A stretch of DNA of 64,000 nt, from the IMG/VR virus record IMGVR_UViG_3300007513_000003. One strand, written 5' to 3'. A program made the position numbers and the translations under genes. The stretch comes from a virus. Its lineage: Duplodnaviria > Caudoviricetes. Below are positions 17,010-62,979 of the stretch, one piece after another. Every line of letters begins with the position of its first letter. Position 1 is the first letter of the stretch. Below the pieces are notes generated by a model, which saw only the letters and a list, made by a program, of their open reading frames with translations, searched no databases and was not told the DNA's origin.

Positions 17010-18449
17010 TTAGGCATTATAATCACAGTTGCTACAAGCAGAGGCACACATATTTAAATTACCACAATCACCGTAGTCGGCATTTAGAGTCTGTAGAAAC
17101 CTATTCTCTGTTGTATTTGGAGTCCATGTATTTGCTATTGTGTCAAAAAATCCTGTTTTGAATACTTCTTCTATACCACCATATTTTAGAGCATTGTTAG
17201 CATCGTTTTTAAAACCAAAAGTTAATAACAATTCTCTCAGATCGTAAGTGTACTCATTTGCAATTCTTGTGTGATTATGACCCATCATACAACACGGATA
17301 AACAAAGCCGTCTGCTGTAATAAAAACTTTAGATTCTGTTACAGCCATGCAATTTATTTTTCTATTACTGTGCTTTTTACTCGATGGTAAACCTCTCAGA
17401 ACTTTATTGACATCAACGTTGTCATATTCTTCAATATTGGTCACTTTCCATAGCGAATCTTTAACCCAAATAAATTTTTCTGCTTCTTCTTCCCATGATT
17501 TATTTTGACTAACATATTTTTCTTGTGCGATTTTTAAAAATGATGTATATTCTTTTATATTAATTTGATCAATTTGGTTATCATCTTCACTAACAAACAT
17601 ATGTGCCTTATATTTTTTTGCAATATTGTATACAGGACCCTTTCCGTGTTTTTGGATAGCCTTTTTAAAAAGATCAGACAATGTTTCATTTACTTCATAA
17701 AGCATTGCATCTAAATATGGATATGATATTTTTATATCTGTTTGTTCTTCATTATTTTTGATGTTTTCTGTTTGATCAGTTAAGTATCTGTCATAATCTT
17801 CTAAGCCTTCCGCACCTTGAAGTTGACCAACATATTCTCCTTTACTGGTATATACTGGAGTATCTTCTGGCCTATCCGTATTGATAATTTCTATTTTTGC
17901 AAAATTATATTCTTTGGCAAGTTCTTTAACATCTTCAAATTGATGTTGATTATGTTTAAAAAGTATAAACTGTAAAATAGCATTTCCACCTGCGTCTATA
18001 AATGCTTTTGCGTTTTCTAAAACTTTTTTAAGATTTGTGTTTTGTCTATAATAAGAATGTACTTCTTGCGTTGTGCCATCTACTGCAAACCATATTTTCA
18101 TATTTTTATACTTTGCAAAATTTGCCCAATAATCAGTACTATGCATTCCGCCGTTGGTATTAATTTCAATTATAATATCATTATTACAGGAATAAAGATA
18201 ATCTACCATTTGAGGTAGATTAGGATTTACTTGGGCGTCTCCAACATTTCCACAAAATATAACACGTTCTAAGTTGGATACCAGTTTTGATGTTAATAAA
18301 AATTTAAACTCATCTAGCGACATGTGTTTTTGATAGGTGCCTGCTAGTTCTCCATATCCATAATATGCTCTACTACAGGCAGGGCATGCCGCGTTACACT
18401 TTTCGGTTATTTCAATTTGTACACTAGTAATATCTTTATATCTATACAT
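17010..18449 (-). CDS. Radical SAM protein (MoaA-like, C-terminal Twitch-like)
   Basis: CNAACPAC, FCGNVGD, NTNGG, FAVDG, VYPCC. Start moved to MYRY. Confidence 0.9.
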   Translation of the reverse strand: MYRYKDITSVQIEITEKCNAACPACSRAYYGYGELAGTYQKHMSLDEFKFLLTSKLVSNLERVIFCGNVGDAQVNPNLPQMVDYLYSCNNDIIIEINTNGGMHSTDYWANFAKYKNMKIWFAVDGTTQEVHSYYRQNTNLKKVLENAKAFIDAGGNAILQFILFKHNQHQFEDVKELAKEYNFAKIEIINTDRPEDTPVYTSKGEYVGQLQGAEGLEDYDRYLTDQTENIKNNEEQTDIKISYPYLDAMLYEVNETLSDLFKKAIQKHGKGPVYNIAKKYKAHMFVSEDDNQIDQINIKEYTSFLKIAQEKYVSQNKSWEEEAEKFIWVKDSLWKVTNIEEYDNVDVNKVLRGLPSSKKHSNRKINCMAVTESKVFITADGFVYPCCMMGHNHTRIANEYTYDLRELLLTFGFKNDANNALKYGGIEEVFKTGFFDTIANTWTPNTTENRFLQTLNADYGDCGNLNMCASACSNCDYNA

Positions 18450-19128
18450 CCAAATTATAATATTGAGCAACGCGTCTGTTCCATTCGTTAGCTGCGTTCT
18501 CAAACTCCTTGCCTTCGATAACAAACTCTTGATAATTTAAGTCTTTAGAGCACATTAACACAACCCCGGTTTTAATGTCTGTACCAAACATTTCATTGTG
18601 TGCTTGTGCGTATGCGGCTAACTGGCAAAAATAGTTGCTAATCCATTCTTTTTTCTTAGGTTTATTAGTTTGCTTAAAGTCAAGTATTGCTAAGTTACCT
18701 TTCCAAAGTCCTACACAATCTGTTGTGCCTGCGTATAATCCTTCATAGTATAGCGAGACTTCTGTACCATATATTTCGCTAACTTTCCTAAGTCCTTCGG
18801 CAATAATAACATTTGACATGTTGTATGCTTTTTGGTGTATGACATTACTGCCAACTTTGCGTTCATGGCTCTCAATATATAATTCTAAATTTTTATGCAT
18901 TAGTGTGCCGACATTTGCGGCTTCTGTACTAATTTGCTGTGCTTGCGTTTCGCCAACACGCTTTTTCCAGTTTGCTAATGCTTCTCTTTCTTGTTGGGAT
19001 TTAGTCGCGTCTAATATAGTTGTAACGCTAGGAACTGCTGATCCATCAGGTAATTGATACTTGCGTTTTCTATCTATAGTCGTAACACGTTTTAATTCGT
19101 TGTAATCGTATTTTTCCAGTAATATCAT
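18442..19128 (-). CDS. PD-(D/E)xK exonuclease
   Basis: PSVTTIL, GTLMH, AGTTDC, ILDFKQ, YFCQLAAYA. Confidence 0.9.
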   Translation of the reverse strand: MILLEKYDYNELKRVTTIDRKRKYQLPDGSAVPSVTTILDATKSQQEREALANWKKRVGETQAQQISTEAANVGTLMHKNLELYIESHERKVGSNVIHQKAYNMSNVIIAEGLRKVSEIYGTEVSLYYEGLYAGTTDCVGLWKGNLAILDFKQTNKPKKKEWISNYFCQLAAYAQAHNEMFGTDIKTGVVLMCSKDLNYQEFVIEGKEFENAANEWNRRVAQYYNLDV

Positions 19129-38726: not shown

Positions 38727-39101
38727 ATGTCTAACATTTATCAAGAACTAACCGAGAAATACCCGTTTATAAGTTATATCAAGTATGTTGATAAAGAGTT
38801 TATTGGCATTATTTTAAATAAAGATGCATCAATTATTAGTATATATGACTATAATGCGCTTCCTAGCATTAAAGTAAAGCAAAAATTTTTAGAATTGGGA
38901 GATGTCTGGTGGTGGGAATCCAATAGATTATTTCCTATTAACGTTTTTCTTAAAAAAGAATTTGTACCTTTCAAACCTTATATTAAAACATTTATGGCGA
39001 AAGATGTAGAAATAGTCCATGGCCCATATGTTAGTATGAATGAACTTGCTCAACGCAGAACAAAACGTAGAAATATTCAATTAGTCCAAAAGGTAAAATA
39101 G
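38727..39101 (+). CDS. Hypothetical protein
   Basis: 124-aa ORF with a WWWESNR motif. Confidence 0.7.
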   Translation: MSNIYQELTEKYPFISYIKYVDKEFIGIILNKDASIISIYDYNALPSIKVKQKFLELGDVWWWESNRLFPINVFLKKEFVPFKPYIKTFMAKDVEIVHGPYVSMNELAQRRTKRRNIQLVQKVK

Positions 39102-39106
39102 GTAAA

Positions 39107-40420
39107 ATGAGTGATAATGCACATCAAGTACACAATAGATCAATTATTAACACTAAACAGTCTAAATTACAATGTAGATTAAAATGGTCACTTAGCACCA
39201 TATTTTTAACTACAAATACGACTGCAAGTTGCCATAGATGTGATCATAATCCAATTACGGAAGATTTTAATTTTCATAATACTCATCAAAAGGTACATGC
39301 TCGATTGCAGATGTTGCGCGATGAGTGGCCAGAGTTAGGATGCGAACACTGTAGAGTTATTGAGCAGGCAGGAGGAATGAGTGATAGACTCTTACATGAC
39401 GACATGGGATTTGCCCCGTCATCTCCGCCTGAATTATTTGATAATCCAAATGCAGTTCATGTTACTCCAACGCAACTTGAAATATATTTCAGTAATCTTT
39501 GCCAATTATCCTGTACATATTGTGGTTCGTATTTTAGTAGTACATGGGAGGCAGAAGACAAAAAATATGGTGACATACATGATTTCATGTATCCTGATGA
39601 CCACAAGGCCGGCCGGCCTAATTATCAAGAACTTAAATATTTAGATAAAGTATTTGACTGGTTAGATAAAAATGGCCAGCACCTAAGATCATTATACATT
39701 TTAGGGGGAGAACCCTTTATACAACCACAGTCTGATCGTTTGTTAGATTTCATTGCAGGAAATGGTGATAAATTTAAAAATTTAGATTTATTCTTTTTTA
39801 GTAATCTATCAAGTGATAATATAGAACCAAAAATTATTAAATTAAAGCAACTTCTAGAAGAGGGTAGATTACACAATGCTCATATTGTCGGCAGTATTGA
39901 TTGTTGGGGTAAGGAAGCAGAGTATGTAAGATATGGACTAGATATAGAATTATTTGATAAAAACATGAAATATATAATCGACGCCGGACTTGACACTACA
40001 ATAAACATATGTTGGTCTCCTATATCTACTTTTACTATGCCTGATCTTATTGAAAAATATCAAGAATGGAATCAACGACATATTACGAGAGGGAAGGAAT
40101 GGGGTATGAATATTAGTTTAATGCAAGCCTCTGGTAAAGACTGGATGCACCCTTCAATATTTGGTCCGAAAATTTTAGATTGGGGATACAACCAATCAAT
40201 TGACATGTTAATAAATATTGCAAACGAAAATTCTGAAAGCACAACCAGGGAATCTGTCATTGAATATCTTGAAGGAATAAAAAAAGCAATTGAGTCGGAT
40301 ATTCCTAATAAAAAAGCACAACAGGAATTACATAGATATCTAACAGAACTGGATCGCAGGCGTGGAACAGATTATAGAGAACTTTTCCCTATAATCTACG
40401 AAGAGATTCATAAGCAATAA
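39107..40420 (+). CDS. Radical SAM protein with N-terminal SPASM/Twitch-like cluster
   Basis: SCHRC..CEHC, NLCQLSCTYC, LGGEPF. Confidence 0.88.
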   Translation: MSDNAHQVHNRSIINTKQSKLQCRLKWSLSTIFLTTNTTASCHRCDHNPITEDFNFHNTHQKVHARLQMLRDEWPELGCEHCRVIEQAGGMSDRLLHDDMGFAPSSPPELFDNPNAVHVTPTQLEIYFSNLCQLSCTYCGSYFSSTWEAEDKKYGDIHDFMYPDDHKAGRPNYQELKYLDKVFDWLDKNGQHLRSLYILGGEPFIQPQSDRLLDFIAGNGDKFKNLDLFFFSNLSSDNIEPKIIKLKQLLEEGRLHNAHIVGSIDCWGKEAEYVRYGLDIELFDKNMKYIIDAGLDTTINICWSPISTFTMPDLIEKYQEWNQRHITRGKEWGMNISLMQASGKDWMHPSIFGPKILDWGYNQSIDMLINIANENSESTTRESVIEYLEGIKKAIESDIPNKKAQQELHRYLTELDRRRGTDYRELFPIIYEEIHKQ

Positions 40421-40435
40421 AACATAAATACAGTT

Positions 40436-42061
40436 ATGCGTTTTAATGAATTTAAATTATTTGAAGCAAATTTATCGTTTGGTGATTTCCATCAAGCTGC
40501 TGAAGAACGATGGGATGTTTTTTTAAATCGCGTCAAAGGAAAGATTCCATGGGACGGCACAATTGCACCTACTTTGGGTGGGCAAGAATATGATTATCCC
40601 AAAGCAAGATCCGGAACGTATCCTTATAATATATACATTGGATACGCAAATGCCACCAGCCAAAGTAAACTTTTAAAGTCAATTCAATCAGGATCCTTCT
40701 ATGGCTATCTAGACGGTAAATCTTGGGTAGTACCGGTTTATGATCCTAAAACTAATACACAATTAGACAATTATAGAATTTCAAATCTCTTTAAAGATCA
40801 TCAATTTGCCGAACCACATCGTATTAAAAGTAAAGATCAAATCGCAAATTTTGGTAATTTAACAGAATCCTTGGCAGGTGCAGGTTTAACAGCAAAATTT
40901 ACTAAACGTGTACAAGGCGGAGTCCAGCCTATCGAAGTTAAAGACATTCTTAAAATAATTTCAAAATTAACAGTAGATAATAGTAGTAGTCAAGAAGTAA
41001 AAATTAATTCAAAAGAATTACACAAAGAAGACGTGGTGTATGCTTCTGCAGAATATAAAAGTAATTTACAAGATAAAATTGTTTGGAGAATTAAAACTCA
41101 AGAACAGGCTTTTAGGGAACTAGTAGCGATTGGAGAAGGGAAGCATTTAGATAATCCAAAACTATTAGGCTTGCTTGGGGCAGTTGCAAATTATGCTAAT
41201 TCTCGATTAATGACGCAATACTCTAGATTTTTTGCAACGAATCTCAAAGTTGATGAGATTATAGTAGATACCGACGGTATAGGTGGTGCCGCTTCCTTGC
41301 AGTCTGGAGGAGGTACTAAAGCAGACCTATTTATAGTTGCTAACGGAAAAAAACTTAGATATGCAAATCTTTCATTAAAAGCCACTAATCCAGATATTGG
41401 ACAACAAGCACTTGTTGGTAAACCACAAGGAAACCTAACAGCAGAAAAACTAAAAGATCATTTGTGGAACAATTTGATAACTTTATGGAAAGGGTTTGAC
41501 GATGGTACAAACTATATCAATGTTGAAAATATACTTTCAAAAGAAGAGTATTTAAATTCCATTGGTATCACTAGTGATATGGATTCTAATCAAATCGAAA
41601 AGGCAATAAACAGCCAATTACAAGCTAGCCAGAAAAAGGTTCGGCCCGGTATACAAAAAATGTTCAGCGCAGTTGCGAACAATATTAAACAAATTTGGCT
41701 TAAAAACGATGATTCACAATCAGAATACGATTTTATACAAGCACTGGTAAACTTTGTTGAATATCATGCAGCCAGAGAAGATAATGTAGAGTTAGTTGAT
41801 TTTAAGGCAACCGGCGATTATAGTGTCCATTCTTTTAAAAACTTATATAAACTACTTAAAGATATAGATTTTGATGTCGGGGAATATAAGACAAACGCGG
41901 GTAACGTAGGATTTAAAGTTTATGATATCAATAATCCAAAAGATGTATTGGTGTCTTTATATTTTCAGCCGAGAGCAGGGCAATCCACATATAAACTGGC
42001 TGTAAAAAAGGGACCTCTACTGAAGAAAGTTACTAATGTGAGTCACAAACGTAATAAGTAA
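40436..42061 (+). CDS. Putative internal head protein with a possible PD-(D/E)xK nuclease motif
   Basis: Leader MRFNEFKLFEA; ATAAATA 5 nt upstream; TKADLFI..LSLKA. Confidence 0.5.
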   Translation: MRFNEFKLFEANLSFGDFHQAAEERWDVFLNRVKGKIPWDGTIAPTLGGQEYDYPKARSGTYPYNIYIGYANATSQSKLLKSIQSGSFYGYLDGKSWVVPVYDPKTNTQLDNYRISNLFKDHQFAEPHRIKSKDQIANFGNLTESLAGAGLTAKFTKRVQGGVQPIEVKDILKIISKLTVDNSSSQEVKINSKELHKEDVVYASAEYKSNLQDKIVWRIKTQEQAFRELVAIGEGKHLDNPKLLGLLGAVANYANSRLMTQYSRFFATNLKVDEIIVDTDGIGGAASLQSGGGTKADLFIVANGKKLRYANLSLKATNPDIGQQALVGKPQGNLTAEKLKDHLWNNLITLWKGFDDGTNYINVENILSKEEYLNSIGITSDMDSNQIEKAINSQLQASQKKVRPGIQKMFSAVANNIKQIWLKNDDSQSEYDFIQALVNFVEYHAAREDNVELVDFKATGDYSVHSFKNLYKLLKDIDFDVGEYKTNAGNVGFKVYDINNPKDVLVSLYFQPRAGQSTYKLAVKKGPLLKKVTNVSHKRNK

Positions 42062-42069
42062 GGTATATA

Positions 42070-42639
42070 TTACTTTAATAAATTCATATGCACAACCACT
42101 AAATGTGCATAACCTACTGAGTGACTCTTTTTAAAATAATACGAATTAGGATCAGTTGGTACTTTCCAAACTTCTTGCCCTATTTCCTTCCACGTTCTAT
42201 TTGCTAGATAGCGTTTAGCAGGGCGTATTACTGCTAAAAACATTGCCATTCTAGGAATACTGTCAGGCATCATCTTCTTTATTAAATCATAATGATTGCT
42301 GATATGTATAATCTGTTCAGTATATTCTCTTTCAGCAAGTCTTTCCCACGGTGGCTCTGTAAACATTAAATCTATTAAATGTTCTTCGCTTTGTACTTGG
42401 TTGTATATATTAACATTAAGTAAATCTAATTTAAAGTATCCTCGCTCTTCTGCGTCCTTATGATCGAGTGAGCAAATACCTTTTACTGGGTCTGTTGGAA
42501 CATCAGTAAAATAAACTCCAGTATTATGTTTTATTAGTTCATTATTGCGTATAATAGTCGCAGGAGTATGGTTTTGTAACTTTTCAAGTACTTCGTTTCT
42601 ATTCGCGAAGTCTATATCAATGTCAAATTTAAGGCTCAT
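42070..42639 (-). CDS. Miniature DnaE-like (family C) DNA polymerase core
   Basis: DIDIDF, HNTGVY, FKLDLL, LAVIRP and YYFKKSHSVGY in DnaE order within 189 aa. Confidence 0.8.
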   Translation of the reverse strand: MSLKFDIDIDFANRNEVLEKLQNHTPATIIRNNELIKHNTGVYFTDVPTDPVKGICSLDHKDAEERGYFKLDLLNVNIYNQVQSEEHLIDLMFTEPPWERLAEREYTEQIIHISNHYDLIKKMMPDSIPRMAMFLAVIRPAKRYLANRTWKEIGQEVWKVPTDPNSYYFKKSHSVGYAHLVVVHMNLLK

Positions 42640-42830
42640 ATTGGTTTCTTGCTCTTGGTACAATTGGTAATGCTAACTAAATTCATAATTGGACGAACAA
42701 TGTATTCATCATTACGTGATACATTTACGCCACCAGGACCACATTTATATCCTAATTTTTCACTTAACCATAACTTATTAAACCATTTATGGTGGTGTGG
42801 GTATTTTTTATAGGCTTCCGAATCATCCAA
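42636..42830 (-). CDS. Short, probably truncated hypothetical protein
   Basis: WFNKLWLSEKLGYKCGPGG..YIVRPIMNL followed by a featureless tail. Confidence 0.45.
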   Translation of the reverse strand: MDDSEAYKKYPHHHKWFNKLWLSEKLGYKCGPGGVNVSRNDEYIVRPIMNLVSITNCTKSKKPI

Positions 42831-43008
42831 ATTTACTTTCCATCCATGCTATTTTATCTTTGAGGTGTAACTTTTCTTTCTTGAGTTCAGTTAACTTTGA
42901 GTGAGTTTCGCCTATGTCATTATTCTCTAGTTTCCAAATTATGTTATCTAATTCTTTATGCCGTTTCTTTAACAATTTTAAATCAAAATCTACTATATTA
43001 TCTGTCAT
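42823..43008 (-). CDS. DUF465/YdcH-like small coiled-coil protein
   Basis: LKKRHKELDNII..LKKEKLHLKDKI. Confidence 0.75.
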   Translation of the reverse strand: MTDNIVDFDLKLLKKRHKELDNIIWKLENNDIGETHSKLTELKKEKLHLKDKIAWMESKFG

Positions 43009-43017
43009 CGTTTTCTC

Positions 43018-43719
43018 CTACATGGTTGCTTCACTTAAAATGTGCTTTGCCCATTCTACGTCCGCCGGAAACGCTTCGAAGCGTTTACTCCAGTATACCG
43101 GATCTATGAAGTCATTTATTAATCCTAACTGCTCGTCTGTCATTTTATCGAGCATATCCATTCCTGTATCGCTATGGTATATAACCCATGGACTTATTTT
43201 CCCATTTCTTATTAGTGCTACTGCTTTATTAAAACTTACAAATTTAAAAAAATGATTGAACGAAGAATTGTTATTATTTGCCCAATCCTCCATACTTAAT
43301 ATGCTACGCTCTAATGCATCTCTAGCATTTTCTGTTTTAATATATGGAAGTAAATATTCTTCATACACAGAATCCTTACACCAATTATCTAACTTAATGT
43401 TACTTTTAATAACATAATCAATAAAGTAATCCGGATTGATTACGTTGATGTTTATAATATGTTTGCCAAACTTTACAAACGCATTATAATATTGGCTACT
43501 AGCAAAGTGCTGGTAGTCTTTAAAGTTAGCAGAACCTTGTGTTAGTTCATAAAAACGTTTATAAGCAATGTATCCTATCTGTACATGCTTTTCGTCTTTC
43601 TGTCCGTGTCTACGTTTTTGTTCACATACATGAGCCGCTAGTGTTTTTTCTCTAGCAAAACTCCTGTTACAAAATTTACATTCATAGCCACTGTTTGATT
43701 GACTTATCGTCGTATCCAT
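43018..43719 (-). CDS. Protein with N-terminal C2H2-like zinc finger
   Basis: CKFCNRSFAREKTLAAHVC. Confidence 0.7.
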   Translation of the reverse strand: MDTTISQSNSGYECKFCNRSFAREKTLAAHVCEQKRRHGQKDEKHVQIGYIAYKRFYELTQGSANFKDYQHFASSQYYNAFVKFGKHIININVINPDYFIDYVIKSNIKLDNWCKDSVYEEYLLPYIKTENARDALERSILSMEDWANNNNSSFNHFFKFVSFNKAVALIRNGKISPWVIYHSDTGMDMLDKMTDEQLGLINDFIDPVYWSKRFEAFPADVEWAKHILSEATM

Positions 43720-44149
43720 GTTCTATTGCTAATTGTTTGAGTTCCTTTTTATCGCATACTTCTGCATATGCTTCTATGTCACTAAGTTTCCACGACGTAT
43801 ATATTTCTTTGAGAAACCTAGTTTTCTTATTATCTTTTGTTTCTTTTTTCATTGGCAAATACTTGCGTTTAAATGTGCCAATGCTTGGATTGATAGCACA
43901 CAGTATTTTGTAAGTTAAGTCGGGATGCTTACTTACCTCCCAAAAGTTAATGTTTAGTTCATTATTGGTTGCGCGAATCATATACTCCTGTAGATCATTG
44001 GAGCCTGTTGCACTTGCGGAATATTTAAGTTGTAAATATGGGCTAAACGCTTTCTTTTTTTCTGCGCTTAAATTCTTGTACCAGTTGTAATCCTTTTTAT
44101 CTATTGCGTTAAATATTTCGCTTAATGGTAATACTGCTGGCTTAGGCAT
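43682..44149 (-). CDS. Possible clamp-loader small subunit (T4 gp62-like)
   Basis: IFNAID.K.Y..Y...KAFSPYL; size and context fit. Confidence 0.45.
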   Translation of the reverse strand: MPKPAVLPLSEIFNAIDKKDYNWYKNLSAEKKKAFSPYLQLKYSASATGSNDLQEYMIRATNNELNINFWEVSKHPDLTYKILCAINPSIGTFKRKYLPMKKETKDNKKTRFLKEIYTSWKLSDIEAYAEVCDKKELKQLAIEHGYDDKSIKQWL

Positions 44150-62025: not shown

Positions 62026-62979
62026 TTATTTAATCACTCCGCATACTTCTAAACATGTCTTTCGATACAATCCTTGGGAAAATTCTTTTGCTATGTTTAA
62101 AGTTTCAATATCATAAACTTCTTTTCTTTCATCTTCCCAAAAACAGCAAGGATGAATTACGCCATCTGCGCTTATAAAAAGTTGATAATGCTCATCATCG
62201 TCAGAGCACTGTAAATGATCACAAACATTTGGATCGACATAATTATTGGAAATAATCTTATCTAAATAGGCTTTTTTATCTACTTCATTTGAAATTGCTG
62301 TGTTTTCGAATACTTGAGTCTTTACTGAGTCATATGAATTATTATCTTCATCAGGAAACTCTAATAAATATCTTTCATTAGTTTTCCAATGAAATGCCTC
62401 TGGCACATAGGGCAATTCTGTATAAAATTCTGAAAACCCTAATTTATGAGACAATTCCCTTGCCTCTTCAACTTGGTGCTGGTTATGTTTAAACGTTAAA
62501 AATTTCCACACCGCGTGGCCGCCGGCGTCGATATATGCCTTTGCATTATCTATTATTTTATTAAAATTTGTGCCTTGTCTATAGATATGATTTGTATCCT
62601 CTAGTCCATCAATTGAGAAAGTAACTTCAAGTTGATTGCTTTTATAACTTCCTAAATCGGCCCACCAAGTCGTAGATCTTAAACTACCGCTTGTGTGCAT
62701 TGAAACAAAAAATTCTCTGTTATCGAATGATACCAATCTTAAAAGATCTTTAAGATGCTTATAGGCTGCAGGGTCTCCTCGATTTCCACATAAATGAATA
62801 TTTTTTAATATATTACATTTATTAACAAAATCAATAAAAAAATCTAGATCAAGATCAATTAATTCAAAATTGTCTTTAAGTCCATATCCATTATTATTGC
62901 GCGGACATCCTGGGCAACTAGCATTACATTTGGTTGTTGGCTCTACATGAACAATTGTTATTTTATTCCATATTTCCAT
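62026..62979 (-). CDS. Radical SAM protein (paralog of 17010..18449)
   Basis: CNASCPGC, LCGNRGD, FSIDGLEDTNHIYR, IHPCC. Confidence 0.9.
   Translation of the reverse strand: MEIWNKITIVHVEPTTKCNASCPGCPRNNNGYGLKDNFELIDLDLDFFIDFVNKCNILKNIHLCGNRGDPAAYKHLKDLLRLVSFDNREFFVSMHTSGSLRSTTWWADLGSYKSNQLEVTFSIDGLEDTNHIYRQGTNFNKIIDNAKAYIDAGGHAVWKFLTFKHNQHQVEEARELSHKLGFSEFYTELPYVPEAFHWKTNERYLLEFPDEDNNSYDSVKTQVFENTAISNEVDKKAYLDKIISNNYVDPNVCDHLQCSDDDEHYQLFISADGVIHPCCFWEDERKEVYDIETLNIAKEFSQGLYRKTCLEVCGVIK

Follow-up and report, generated by a model that had tools for sequence, protein, structure and literature searches.

The question raised by the locus described here is what an open reading frame of only 189 codons can encode when it carries the catalytic motifs of bacterial DNA polymerase III alpha (Pol III alpha, DnaE), a protein of 1160 aa in Escherichia coli. 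The frame lies at 42070..42639 on the minus strand of a 64-kb stretch of DNA, referred to below as the window, from an uncultured phage (IMG/VR record IMGVR_UViG_3300007513_000003). In a preliminary description it was read as a miniature DnaE reduced to its catalytic core, and it was proposed to be either part of a split or multi-subunit replicase, with the adjacent zinc-finger and gp62-like ORFs as possible partners, or a stand-alone minimal nucleotidyltransferase. Our analysis indicates that 42070-42639 very probably encodes the C-terminal unit (C-unit) of a two-chain minimal family C polymerase, an enzyme characteristic of jumbo phages of the Rak2/Atu_ph07/PA5oct type ('group 2.2').

A minimal form of Pol III alpha that is specific to phages has been described computationally in this group by Iyer, Anantharaman, Krishnan, Burroughs and Aravind (Iyer et al., 2021, Viruses; PMC7824862, sections 3.4.1 and 3.5). 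According to these authors, the enzyme consists of two proteins whose genes lie far apart, one N-terminal and binding the NTP, the other C-terminal and binding Mg2+ and the template; it occurs alongside a family B polymerase, and it has been proposed as a model of the ancestral Pol III module (PMC7824862). Our search of the literature returned neither a follow-up to this work nor any biochemistry of the mini enzyme, and the PA5oct omics paper states nothing on the C-unit, N-unit or zinc-finger genes.

Sequence motifs and predicted fold of the 189-aa protein

The motifs that had been recognized by eye are all present in the 189-aa protein, namely D6-I-D8-I-D10-F11, H38-N-T-G41-V-Y, K70-L-D72-L-L, L135-A-V-I-R139-P140 and Y168-F-K-K-S-H173-S-V-G-Y177, and they are collinear with those of E. 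coli DnaE (K-12 gene), in which PDFDVDF is found at 400-406, HAGGV at 511-515, KFDFLGL at 553-559, RPGP at 639-642 and FNKSH at 756-760. Two further E. coli motifs, GRGSG (361-365) and FERFLN (388-393), precede this series. Over its full length the protein matches phrog_11778, a PHROGs family of 197 positions annotated as 'DNA polymerase', with an E value of 3e-65, and two separate segments match long DnaE-type PHROGs in the correct order (E 5e-7 and 7e-6). Direct sequence similarity to cellular DnaE is weak: searches of the PDB sequences with the protein and with a C-unit profile gave no match, and the profile reached an E value of only 1e-3 against single DnaE sequences.

The AlphaFold2 model of the C-unit, computed from the family alignment, has a pLDDT of 90, and each of the 14 PDB entries that Foldseek ranks highest is a Pol III alpha or a DnaE1, with probabilities of up to 0.97. 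Using VIA-align, residues 77-189 align to residues 563-776 of the E. coli alpha subunit (Z 9.3, rmsd 3.7, 111 residues), and the whole model (residues 6-189) spans Taq 463-833, E. coli 403-776 and PolC 969-1291; an unrelated fold follows only at Z 3.6. Taken together, the match to phrog_11778, the ordered matches to DnaE-type PHROGs and the Foldseek and VIA matches place the likeness to DnaE beyond chance.

From the motif register and the structural start points, D6 and D8 correspond to E. coli D401 and D403, and D72 to D555, so that the aspartates of the Pol-beta-like palm, the DxD pair and the third Asp, are present in the C-unit. The fingers domain is also present with its RP and KSH..Y motifs, although it is about 100 residues shorter, the E. 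coli alpha segment 642-738 being replaced by about 10 residues. The thumb is gone, with 26 residues between DIDIDF and HNTGV where E. coli has 104. The PHP, HhH and OB domains had been noted as absent, and this agrees with our finding that half of the palm and the fingers fill the 189 residues and that a Pfam search gave no match. The notion of a catalytic core is nearly right; however, the chain starts 5 residues before the DxD strand, lacks the first strand of the palm together with the GRGS loop, and thus contains just one half of the palm.

A family of uniform length under purifying selection

Homologues of the C-unit were found by tblastn in 96 isolated-phage records, all of them jumbo phages (Atu_ph07, Phosso, PA5oct, 121Q/Rak2, SCTP-2 and XacN1 types), at 39-48% identity and with the same length. 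The copy studied here, from an uncultured phage, is thus at most 48% identical to those of isolates, and it has no near match among them at the DNA level, a megablast of the region against isolated phages having given no match. A further 169 loci were collected from IMG/VR, at most 94% identical, each with an open frame of 190-215 aa. Among 1.84 billion proteins, 502 representative clusters match the C-unit profile with an E value of 0.001 or better, and the best 150 of these are all of 233 aa or less, with the exception of one fusion protein of 375 aa. As a side observation, the exact 189-aa sequence occurs on contigs in at least 35 blocks of a public collection, two of which include contigs of 0.2-1 Mb, so that the phage is a common one in environments that have been sequenced.

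In an alignment of 36 C-units, D6, D8, D10, H38, G41, K70, D72, R139, P140, K142, H173 and Y177 are invariant, and the K171-S-H173..Y177 and R139-P140 motifs as wholes are invariant or nearly so. Pairwise dN/dS values among close relatives, a comparison that had been suggested at the outset, are 0.05-0.12. These data bear on the explanation that the ORF derives from a full-length dnaE gene and is in decay, for which the small size of the ORF, and nothing further, can be cited. The homologues are not full-length polymerases but share one length, the dN/dS values are low, and the catalytic residues, including the Asp residues in 36 of 36 sequences, do not vary; the gene is thus not a decaying fragment, and we regard this explanation as having a negligible probability. 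The ORF at 42070-42639 is a real, intact gene under selection.

In relatives, the N-terminal half is encoded by a separate, distant gene

A search of the Phosso genome with PF07733 led to a 177-aa ORF ending ...GVGRGSSVASYVL...EFLN, which represents the N-terminal unit (N-unit) of the polymerase. The closest large relative of the phage studied here is an IMG/VR contig of 322,647 bp (90% complete). Its C-unit shares 81% identity with the 42070-42639 protein, and the contig encodes an N-unit of 169 aa about 205 kb from its own C-unit gene. Separate N-unit genes were found in two further relatives (G004 and G005) in addition to G001 and Phosso, and in about 85 isolates. N-unit and C-unit occur in the same isolates, with equal counts of the two among phages of Escherichia (34 and 34), Salmonella (8 and 8), Erwinia (8 and 8), Xanthomonas (4 and 4) and Yersinia (4 and 4), and the distance between the two genes in relatives is 31-205 kb (31-182 kb in the isolates checked). 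The GRGS motif is invariant in the N-unit profile (n=38), and this profile matches E. coli DnaE at 322-392 (E 2e-8) and the DnaE of Bacillus phage PBC2 at 342-416 (E 2e-16). As the N-unit ends at E. coli residue 392 and the C-unit starts at residue 401 (PBC2 residue 425), the break in the chain falls in a linker of 8 residues within the Pol-beta-like palm.

No N-unit or other piece of DnaE was detected in the 64-kb window by tblastn with the proteins of relatives, or by PHROG scans of the large ORFs; the presence of an N-unit in this phage itself is inferred from its relatives. The proposal of a split or multi-subunit replicase stands as far as the splitting of the enzyme is concerned, but the partner that completes the fold is the N-unit of about 170 aa, encoded far off in relatives, and neither of the adjacent ORFs.

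In XacN1 it is the N-unit gene, rather than that of the C-unit, that sits in the replication module, with the order helicase, N-unit, clamp loader, 155-aa protein and zinc-finger protein. A second conserved neighbourhood, at L083:509-1454 and L002:1761-2576, is that of the N-unit gene. In G001 as well as in Phosso, the gene after it encodes an Ala/Pro/Lys-rich protein of 150-177 aa, and the one after that a protein which, by eye, resembles GroES/gp31.

Natural fusions of the two units

In three cases the two units were found as one chain. These diverged fusions, one of 375 aa and two of 376 aa (78-81% identical), come from different samples and are intact ORFs on their contigs (e.g. L173:1066-2193 and L174:519-1649). 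The N-unit occupies residues 14-180 and is joined by a 9-residue linker to the C-unit at 190-373. A maximum-likelihood tree of 103 C-units places the fused forms in one clade (support 100/100), which lies inside three successive, well-supported clades whose members are of split size; the fusion of the halves therefore looks secondary. From the sequences, we take such a gene fusion as evidence that the two halves work together. On the short contigs L173 and L174, the N-unit part lies directly upstream of the C-unit part, which is where the sister clade (L175) has its zinc-finger gene.

The separate N-unit and its fusions also bear on the proposal that the 189-aa chain alone is an enzyme, a stand-alone minimal nucleotidyltransferase. 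All three Asp residues and K70 are present and invariant, and the structure of the chain is predicted with confidence on its own, as would be expected from this proposal. However, the C-unit starts at the DxD strand, so that neither the strand before it nor the GS loop of a Pol-beta-like fold is included, and the missing elements are found on a separate protein that co-occurs with the C-unit and, in one lineage, is fused ahead of it. Since the first strand and the GRGS motif that binds the triphosphate are missing, we consider a stand-alone C-unit enzyme highly improbable and favour the two-chain polymerase.

Genes adjacent to the C-unit

The ATG of the C-unit gene overlaps the TGA of a 64-aa ORF (42636..42830, minus strand), and the C-unit ORF had been described as ATGA-coupled. 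While the ATGA overlap is present, the upstream ORF is what remains of a 235-aa gene of the phrog_3577 type: compared with the closest relative, L003 (2352-2857), a clean deletion of 506 bp has shifted its frame onto the TGA. A functional partnership of the 64-aa ORF with the C-unit is improbable. Next upstream comes a gene for a 61-aa DUF465 protein (42823..43008, minus strand), which is confined to the closest relatives, as an insertion between the genes for the zinc-finger protein and the C-unit.

The next gene upstream (43018..43719, minus strand) encodes a 233-aa C2H2 zinc-finger protein of phrog_11058, with a conserved zinc finger followed by a helical domain. It lies upstream of the C-unit gene in 78 of 81 loci, and in many of these it overlaps or directly adjoins the beginning of that gene; in PA5oct the two are separated by 22 nt. 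The gene upstream of it (43682..44149, minus strand) encodes a conserved 155-aa protein (phrog_11758), which precedes the zinc-finger gene in 76 of the 81 loci. It has no Pfam match and gives a weak lead to the T4 clamp-loader small subunit gp62; the designation 'gp62-like' is based on one Atlas lead and one depositor's label in a relative. The genes for the 155-aa protein, the zinc-finger protein and the C-unit are thus consecutive on one strand in 76-78 of the 81 loci. The zinc-finger protein is encoded in 93 phage records, compared with 96 for the C-unit.

The zinc-finger protein is modelled with a pLDDT of 91 as a zinc finger and a helical domain, for which no fold match was obtained in the PDB (Foldseek E values above 1; best VIA-wide Z 4.2). 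A relationship to the C-terminal domain of T4 gp59 was considered and rejected, as the Z of 3.7 was tied with unrelated chains. The model suggests that this protein may represent a new fold restricted to these jumbo phages. In complex predictions of N-unit and C-unit with the zinc-finger protein as partner, the median score was 0.02 and a single run reached 0.37, values that speak neither for nor against binding.

The genes for the zinc-finger and gp62-like proteins are conserved neighbours of the C-unit gene. We regard the zinc-finger protein as a candidate accessory subunit. That it is, with or without the gp62-like protein, a third subunit of a three-part minimal family C polymerase is rather unlikely in our estimation; in such an enzyme it would supply the grip on DNA or the link to the clamp loader that in Pol III comes from the thumb, HhH and clamp-binding domains. 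As the entire replication module keeps its synteny between Phosso and this window, shared descent alone could explain the linkage of both genes to that of the C-unit.

On the other side of the C-unit gene, a conserved 124-aa protein (phrog_11637; 38727..39101, plus strand) is encoded by a gene that in most relatives is convergent with, and directly downstream of, that of the C-unit. In the window it has been displaced by two inserted genes (39107-42061, plus strand), one for a radical SAM protein (437 aa) and one for a 541-aa protein that belongs to no family. The closest relative, L003, lacks the 541-aa gene, which is thus a recent insertion. Several radical SAM proteins are encoded in the window, at 793-1860, 17010-18524, 39107-40420 and 62026-62979.

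Relation to the family B polymerase and the replication module

Of the T4-like replication genes reported for the window, a DnaB-like helicase, a primase, a gp32-like SSB, an SF2 helicase and UvsX were identified in our analysis. The C-unit gene is situated within this replication module, between the SF2 helicase gene and the primase-DnaB pair. The statement that a family B polymerase (PolB) is missing from the window was also borne out, since none was found by tblastn with the proteins of relatives or by PHROG scans of the large ORFs. However, this absence probably reflects the 64-kb extent of the window. PolB proteins of 884-1013 aa are encoded by relatives (G001, G002 and Phosso), and in the closest large relatives a PolB of 884 aa is encoded about 160 kb from the C-unit gene; for this phage itself, a PolB is inferred from these relatives.

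It might be argued that the mini enzyme is the main replicase, a multi-subunit family C enzyme that includes the zinc-finger and gp62-like proteins and replaces a missing PolB. This would be in line with the location of the C-unit gene in the middle of the replication module, with the order of the 155-aa, zinc-finger and C-unit genes kept in nearly all loci, with the overlap that many relatives show between the zinc-finger gene and the beginning of the C-unit gene and with the same phyletic spread of the two proteins. However, a T4-type PolB is present in close and distant relatives alike, as also reported by Iyer et al. (PMC7824862), the mini enzyme has no thumb, clamp-binding or DNA-binding domains, and the conserved gene order covers the whole module and may reflect common descent only. 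We therefore regard a role as main replicase as quite improbable. Since PolB is carried by the relatives, the mini enzyme would accompany the T4-type replicase and not replace it.

Model and comparison with known enzymes

According to the two-chain model, the N-unit of about 170 aa, encoded elsewhere, would contribute the first strand of the palm and, with its G-R-G-S loop, would hold the nucleotide triphosphate. The C-unit would supply the second and later Pol-beta-like palm strands, with the metal-binding residues D6 and D8 (and D10 beside them), K70 and the third Asp, D72, and would then add the shortened fingers with R139-P140, K142 and the KSH..Y motif. The two chains would assemble into one palm and active site of about 360 aa, in which the C-unit would bind two metals through D6, D8 and D72, while K70 and the RP/KSH fingers would surround the nascent pair. 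As the thumb, PHP, clamp-binding, HhH and OB domains are lacking, such an enzyme would be distributive. It is probably a short-patch DNA polymerase beside the T4-type PolB, with a putative role in gap filling, repair or recombination-dependent synthesis.

The mini enzyme shares with bacterial Pol III alpha (E. coli structures 2hnh and 5fkw; Taq structures 4iqj and 3e0d) the Asp triad and the Lys residue, the HxxG strand and the RP and KSH..Y motifs in the same order, and the similarity of the fingers is reflected in the Z of 9.3. It differs in that the chain is split after E. coli residue 392, that the thumb region and segment 642-738 are reduced to the remnants described above, and that the PHP, beta-clamp-binding, HhH, OB and tau-binding regions are absent from the two chains. 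In the Taq ternary complex, an Arg residue that contacts the triphosphate lies within the segment equivalent to E. coli 642-738. This finger segment is missing from the mini enzyme and the Arg of the FERFL motif is not conserved among N-units, and nucleotide binding may therefore be different from that of Pol III, as judged from the sequences.

Full-length phage DnaE proteins, such as that of Bacillus phage PBC2 (1113 aa), are a separate case. DIDIDF is found in identical form at 425-430 in the PBC2 protein, but such enzymes are host-like single chains with all domains, unlike the mini enzyme, and they have been placed in a different jumbo-phage group, 3.2 (Iyer et al., PMC7824862). The locus studied here instead matches the split minimal Pol III alpha of that study (PMC7824862) in its C-unit of about 190 aa, encoded by a stand-alone gene; its relatives carry the distant N-unit and the T4-type PolB, and it belongs to the same group of phages (Atu_ph07, Phosso, PA5oct, 121Q/Rak2, SCTP-2 and XacN1). 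The C-unit is hence of a kind that is already known, and the window brings no new kind of element. New in this analysis are the natural 375-aa fusions, the zinc-finger neighbour, the remnant nature of the upstream ORF and the exact split point.

If the active site is indeed assembled from two small chains of about 360 aa together, it would be the smallest known family C enzyme. The split mini enzyme is widespread in environmental jumbo phages and under strong selection. The natural 375-aa fusions are ready-made constructs, and the zinc-finger neighbour, which is often translationally coupled to the C-unit, is a candidate for a cofactor of this minimal polymerase.
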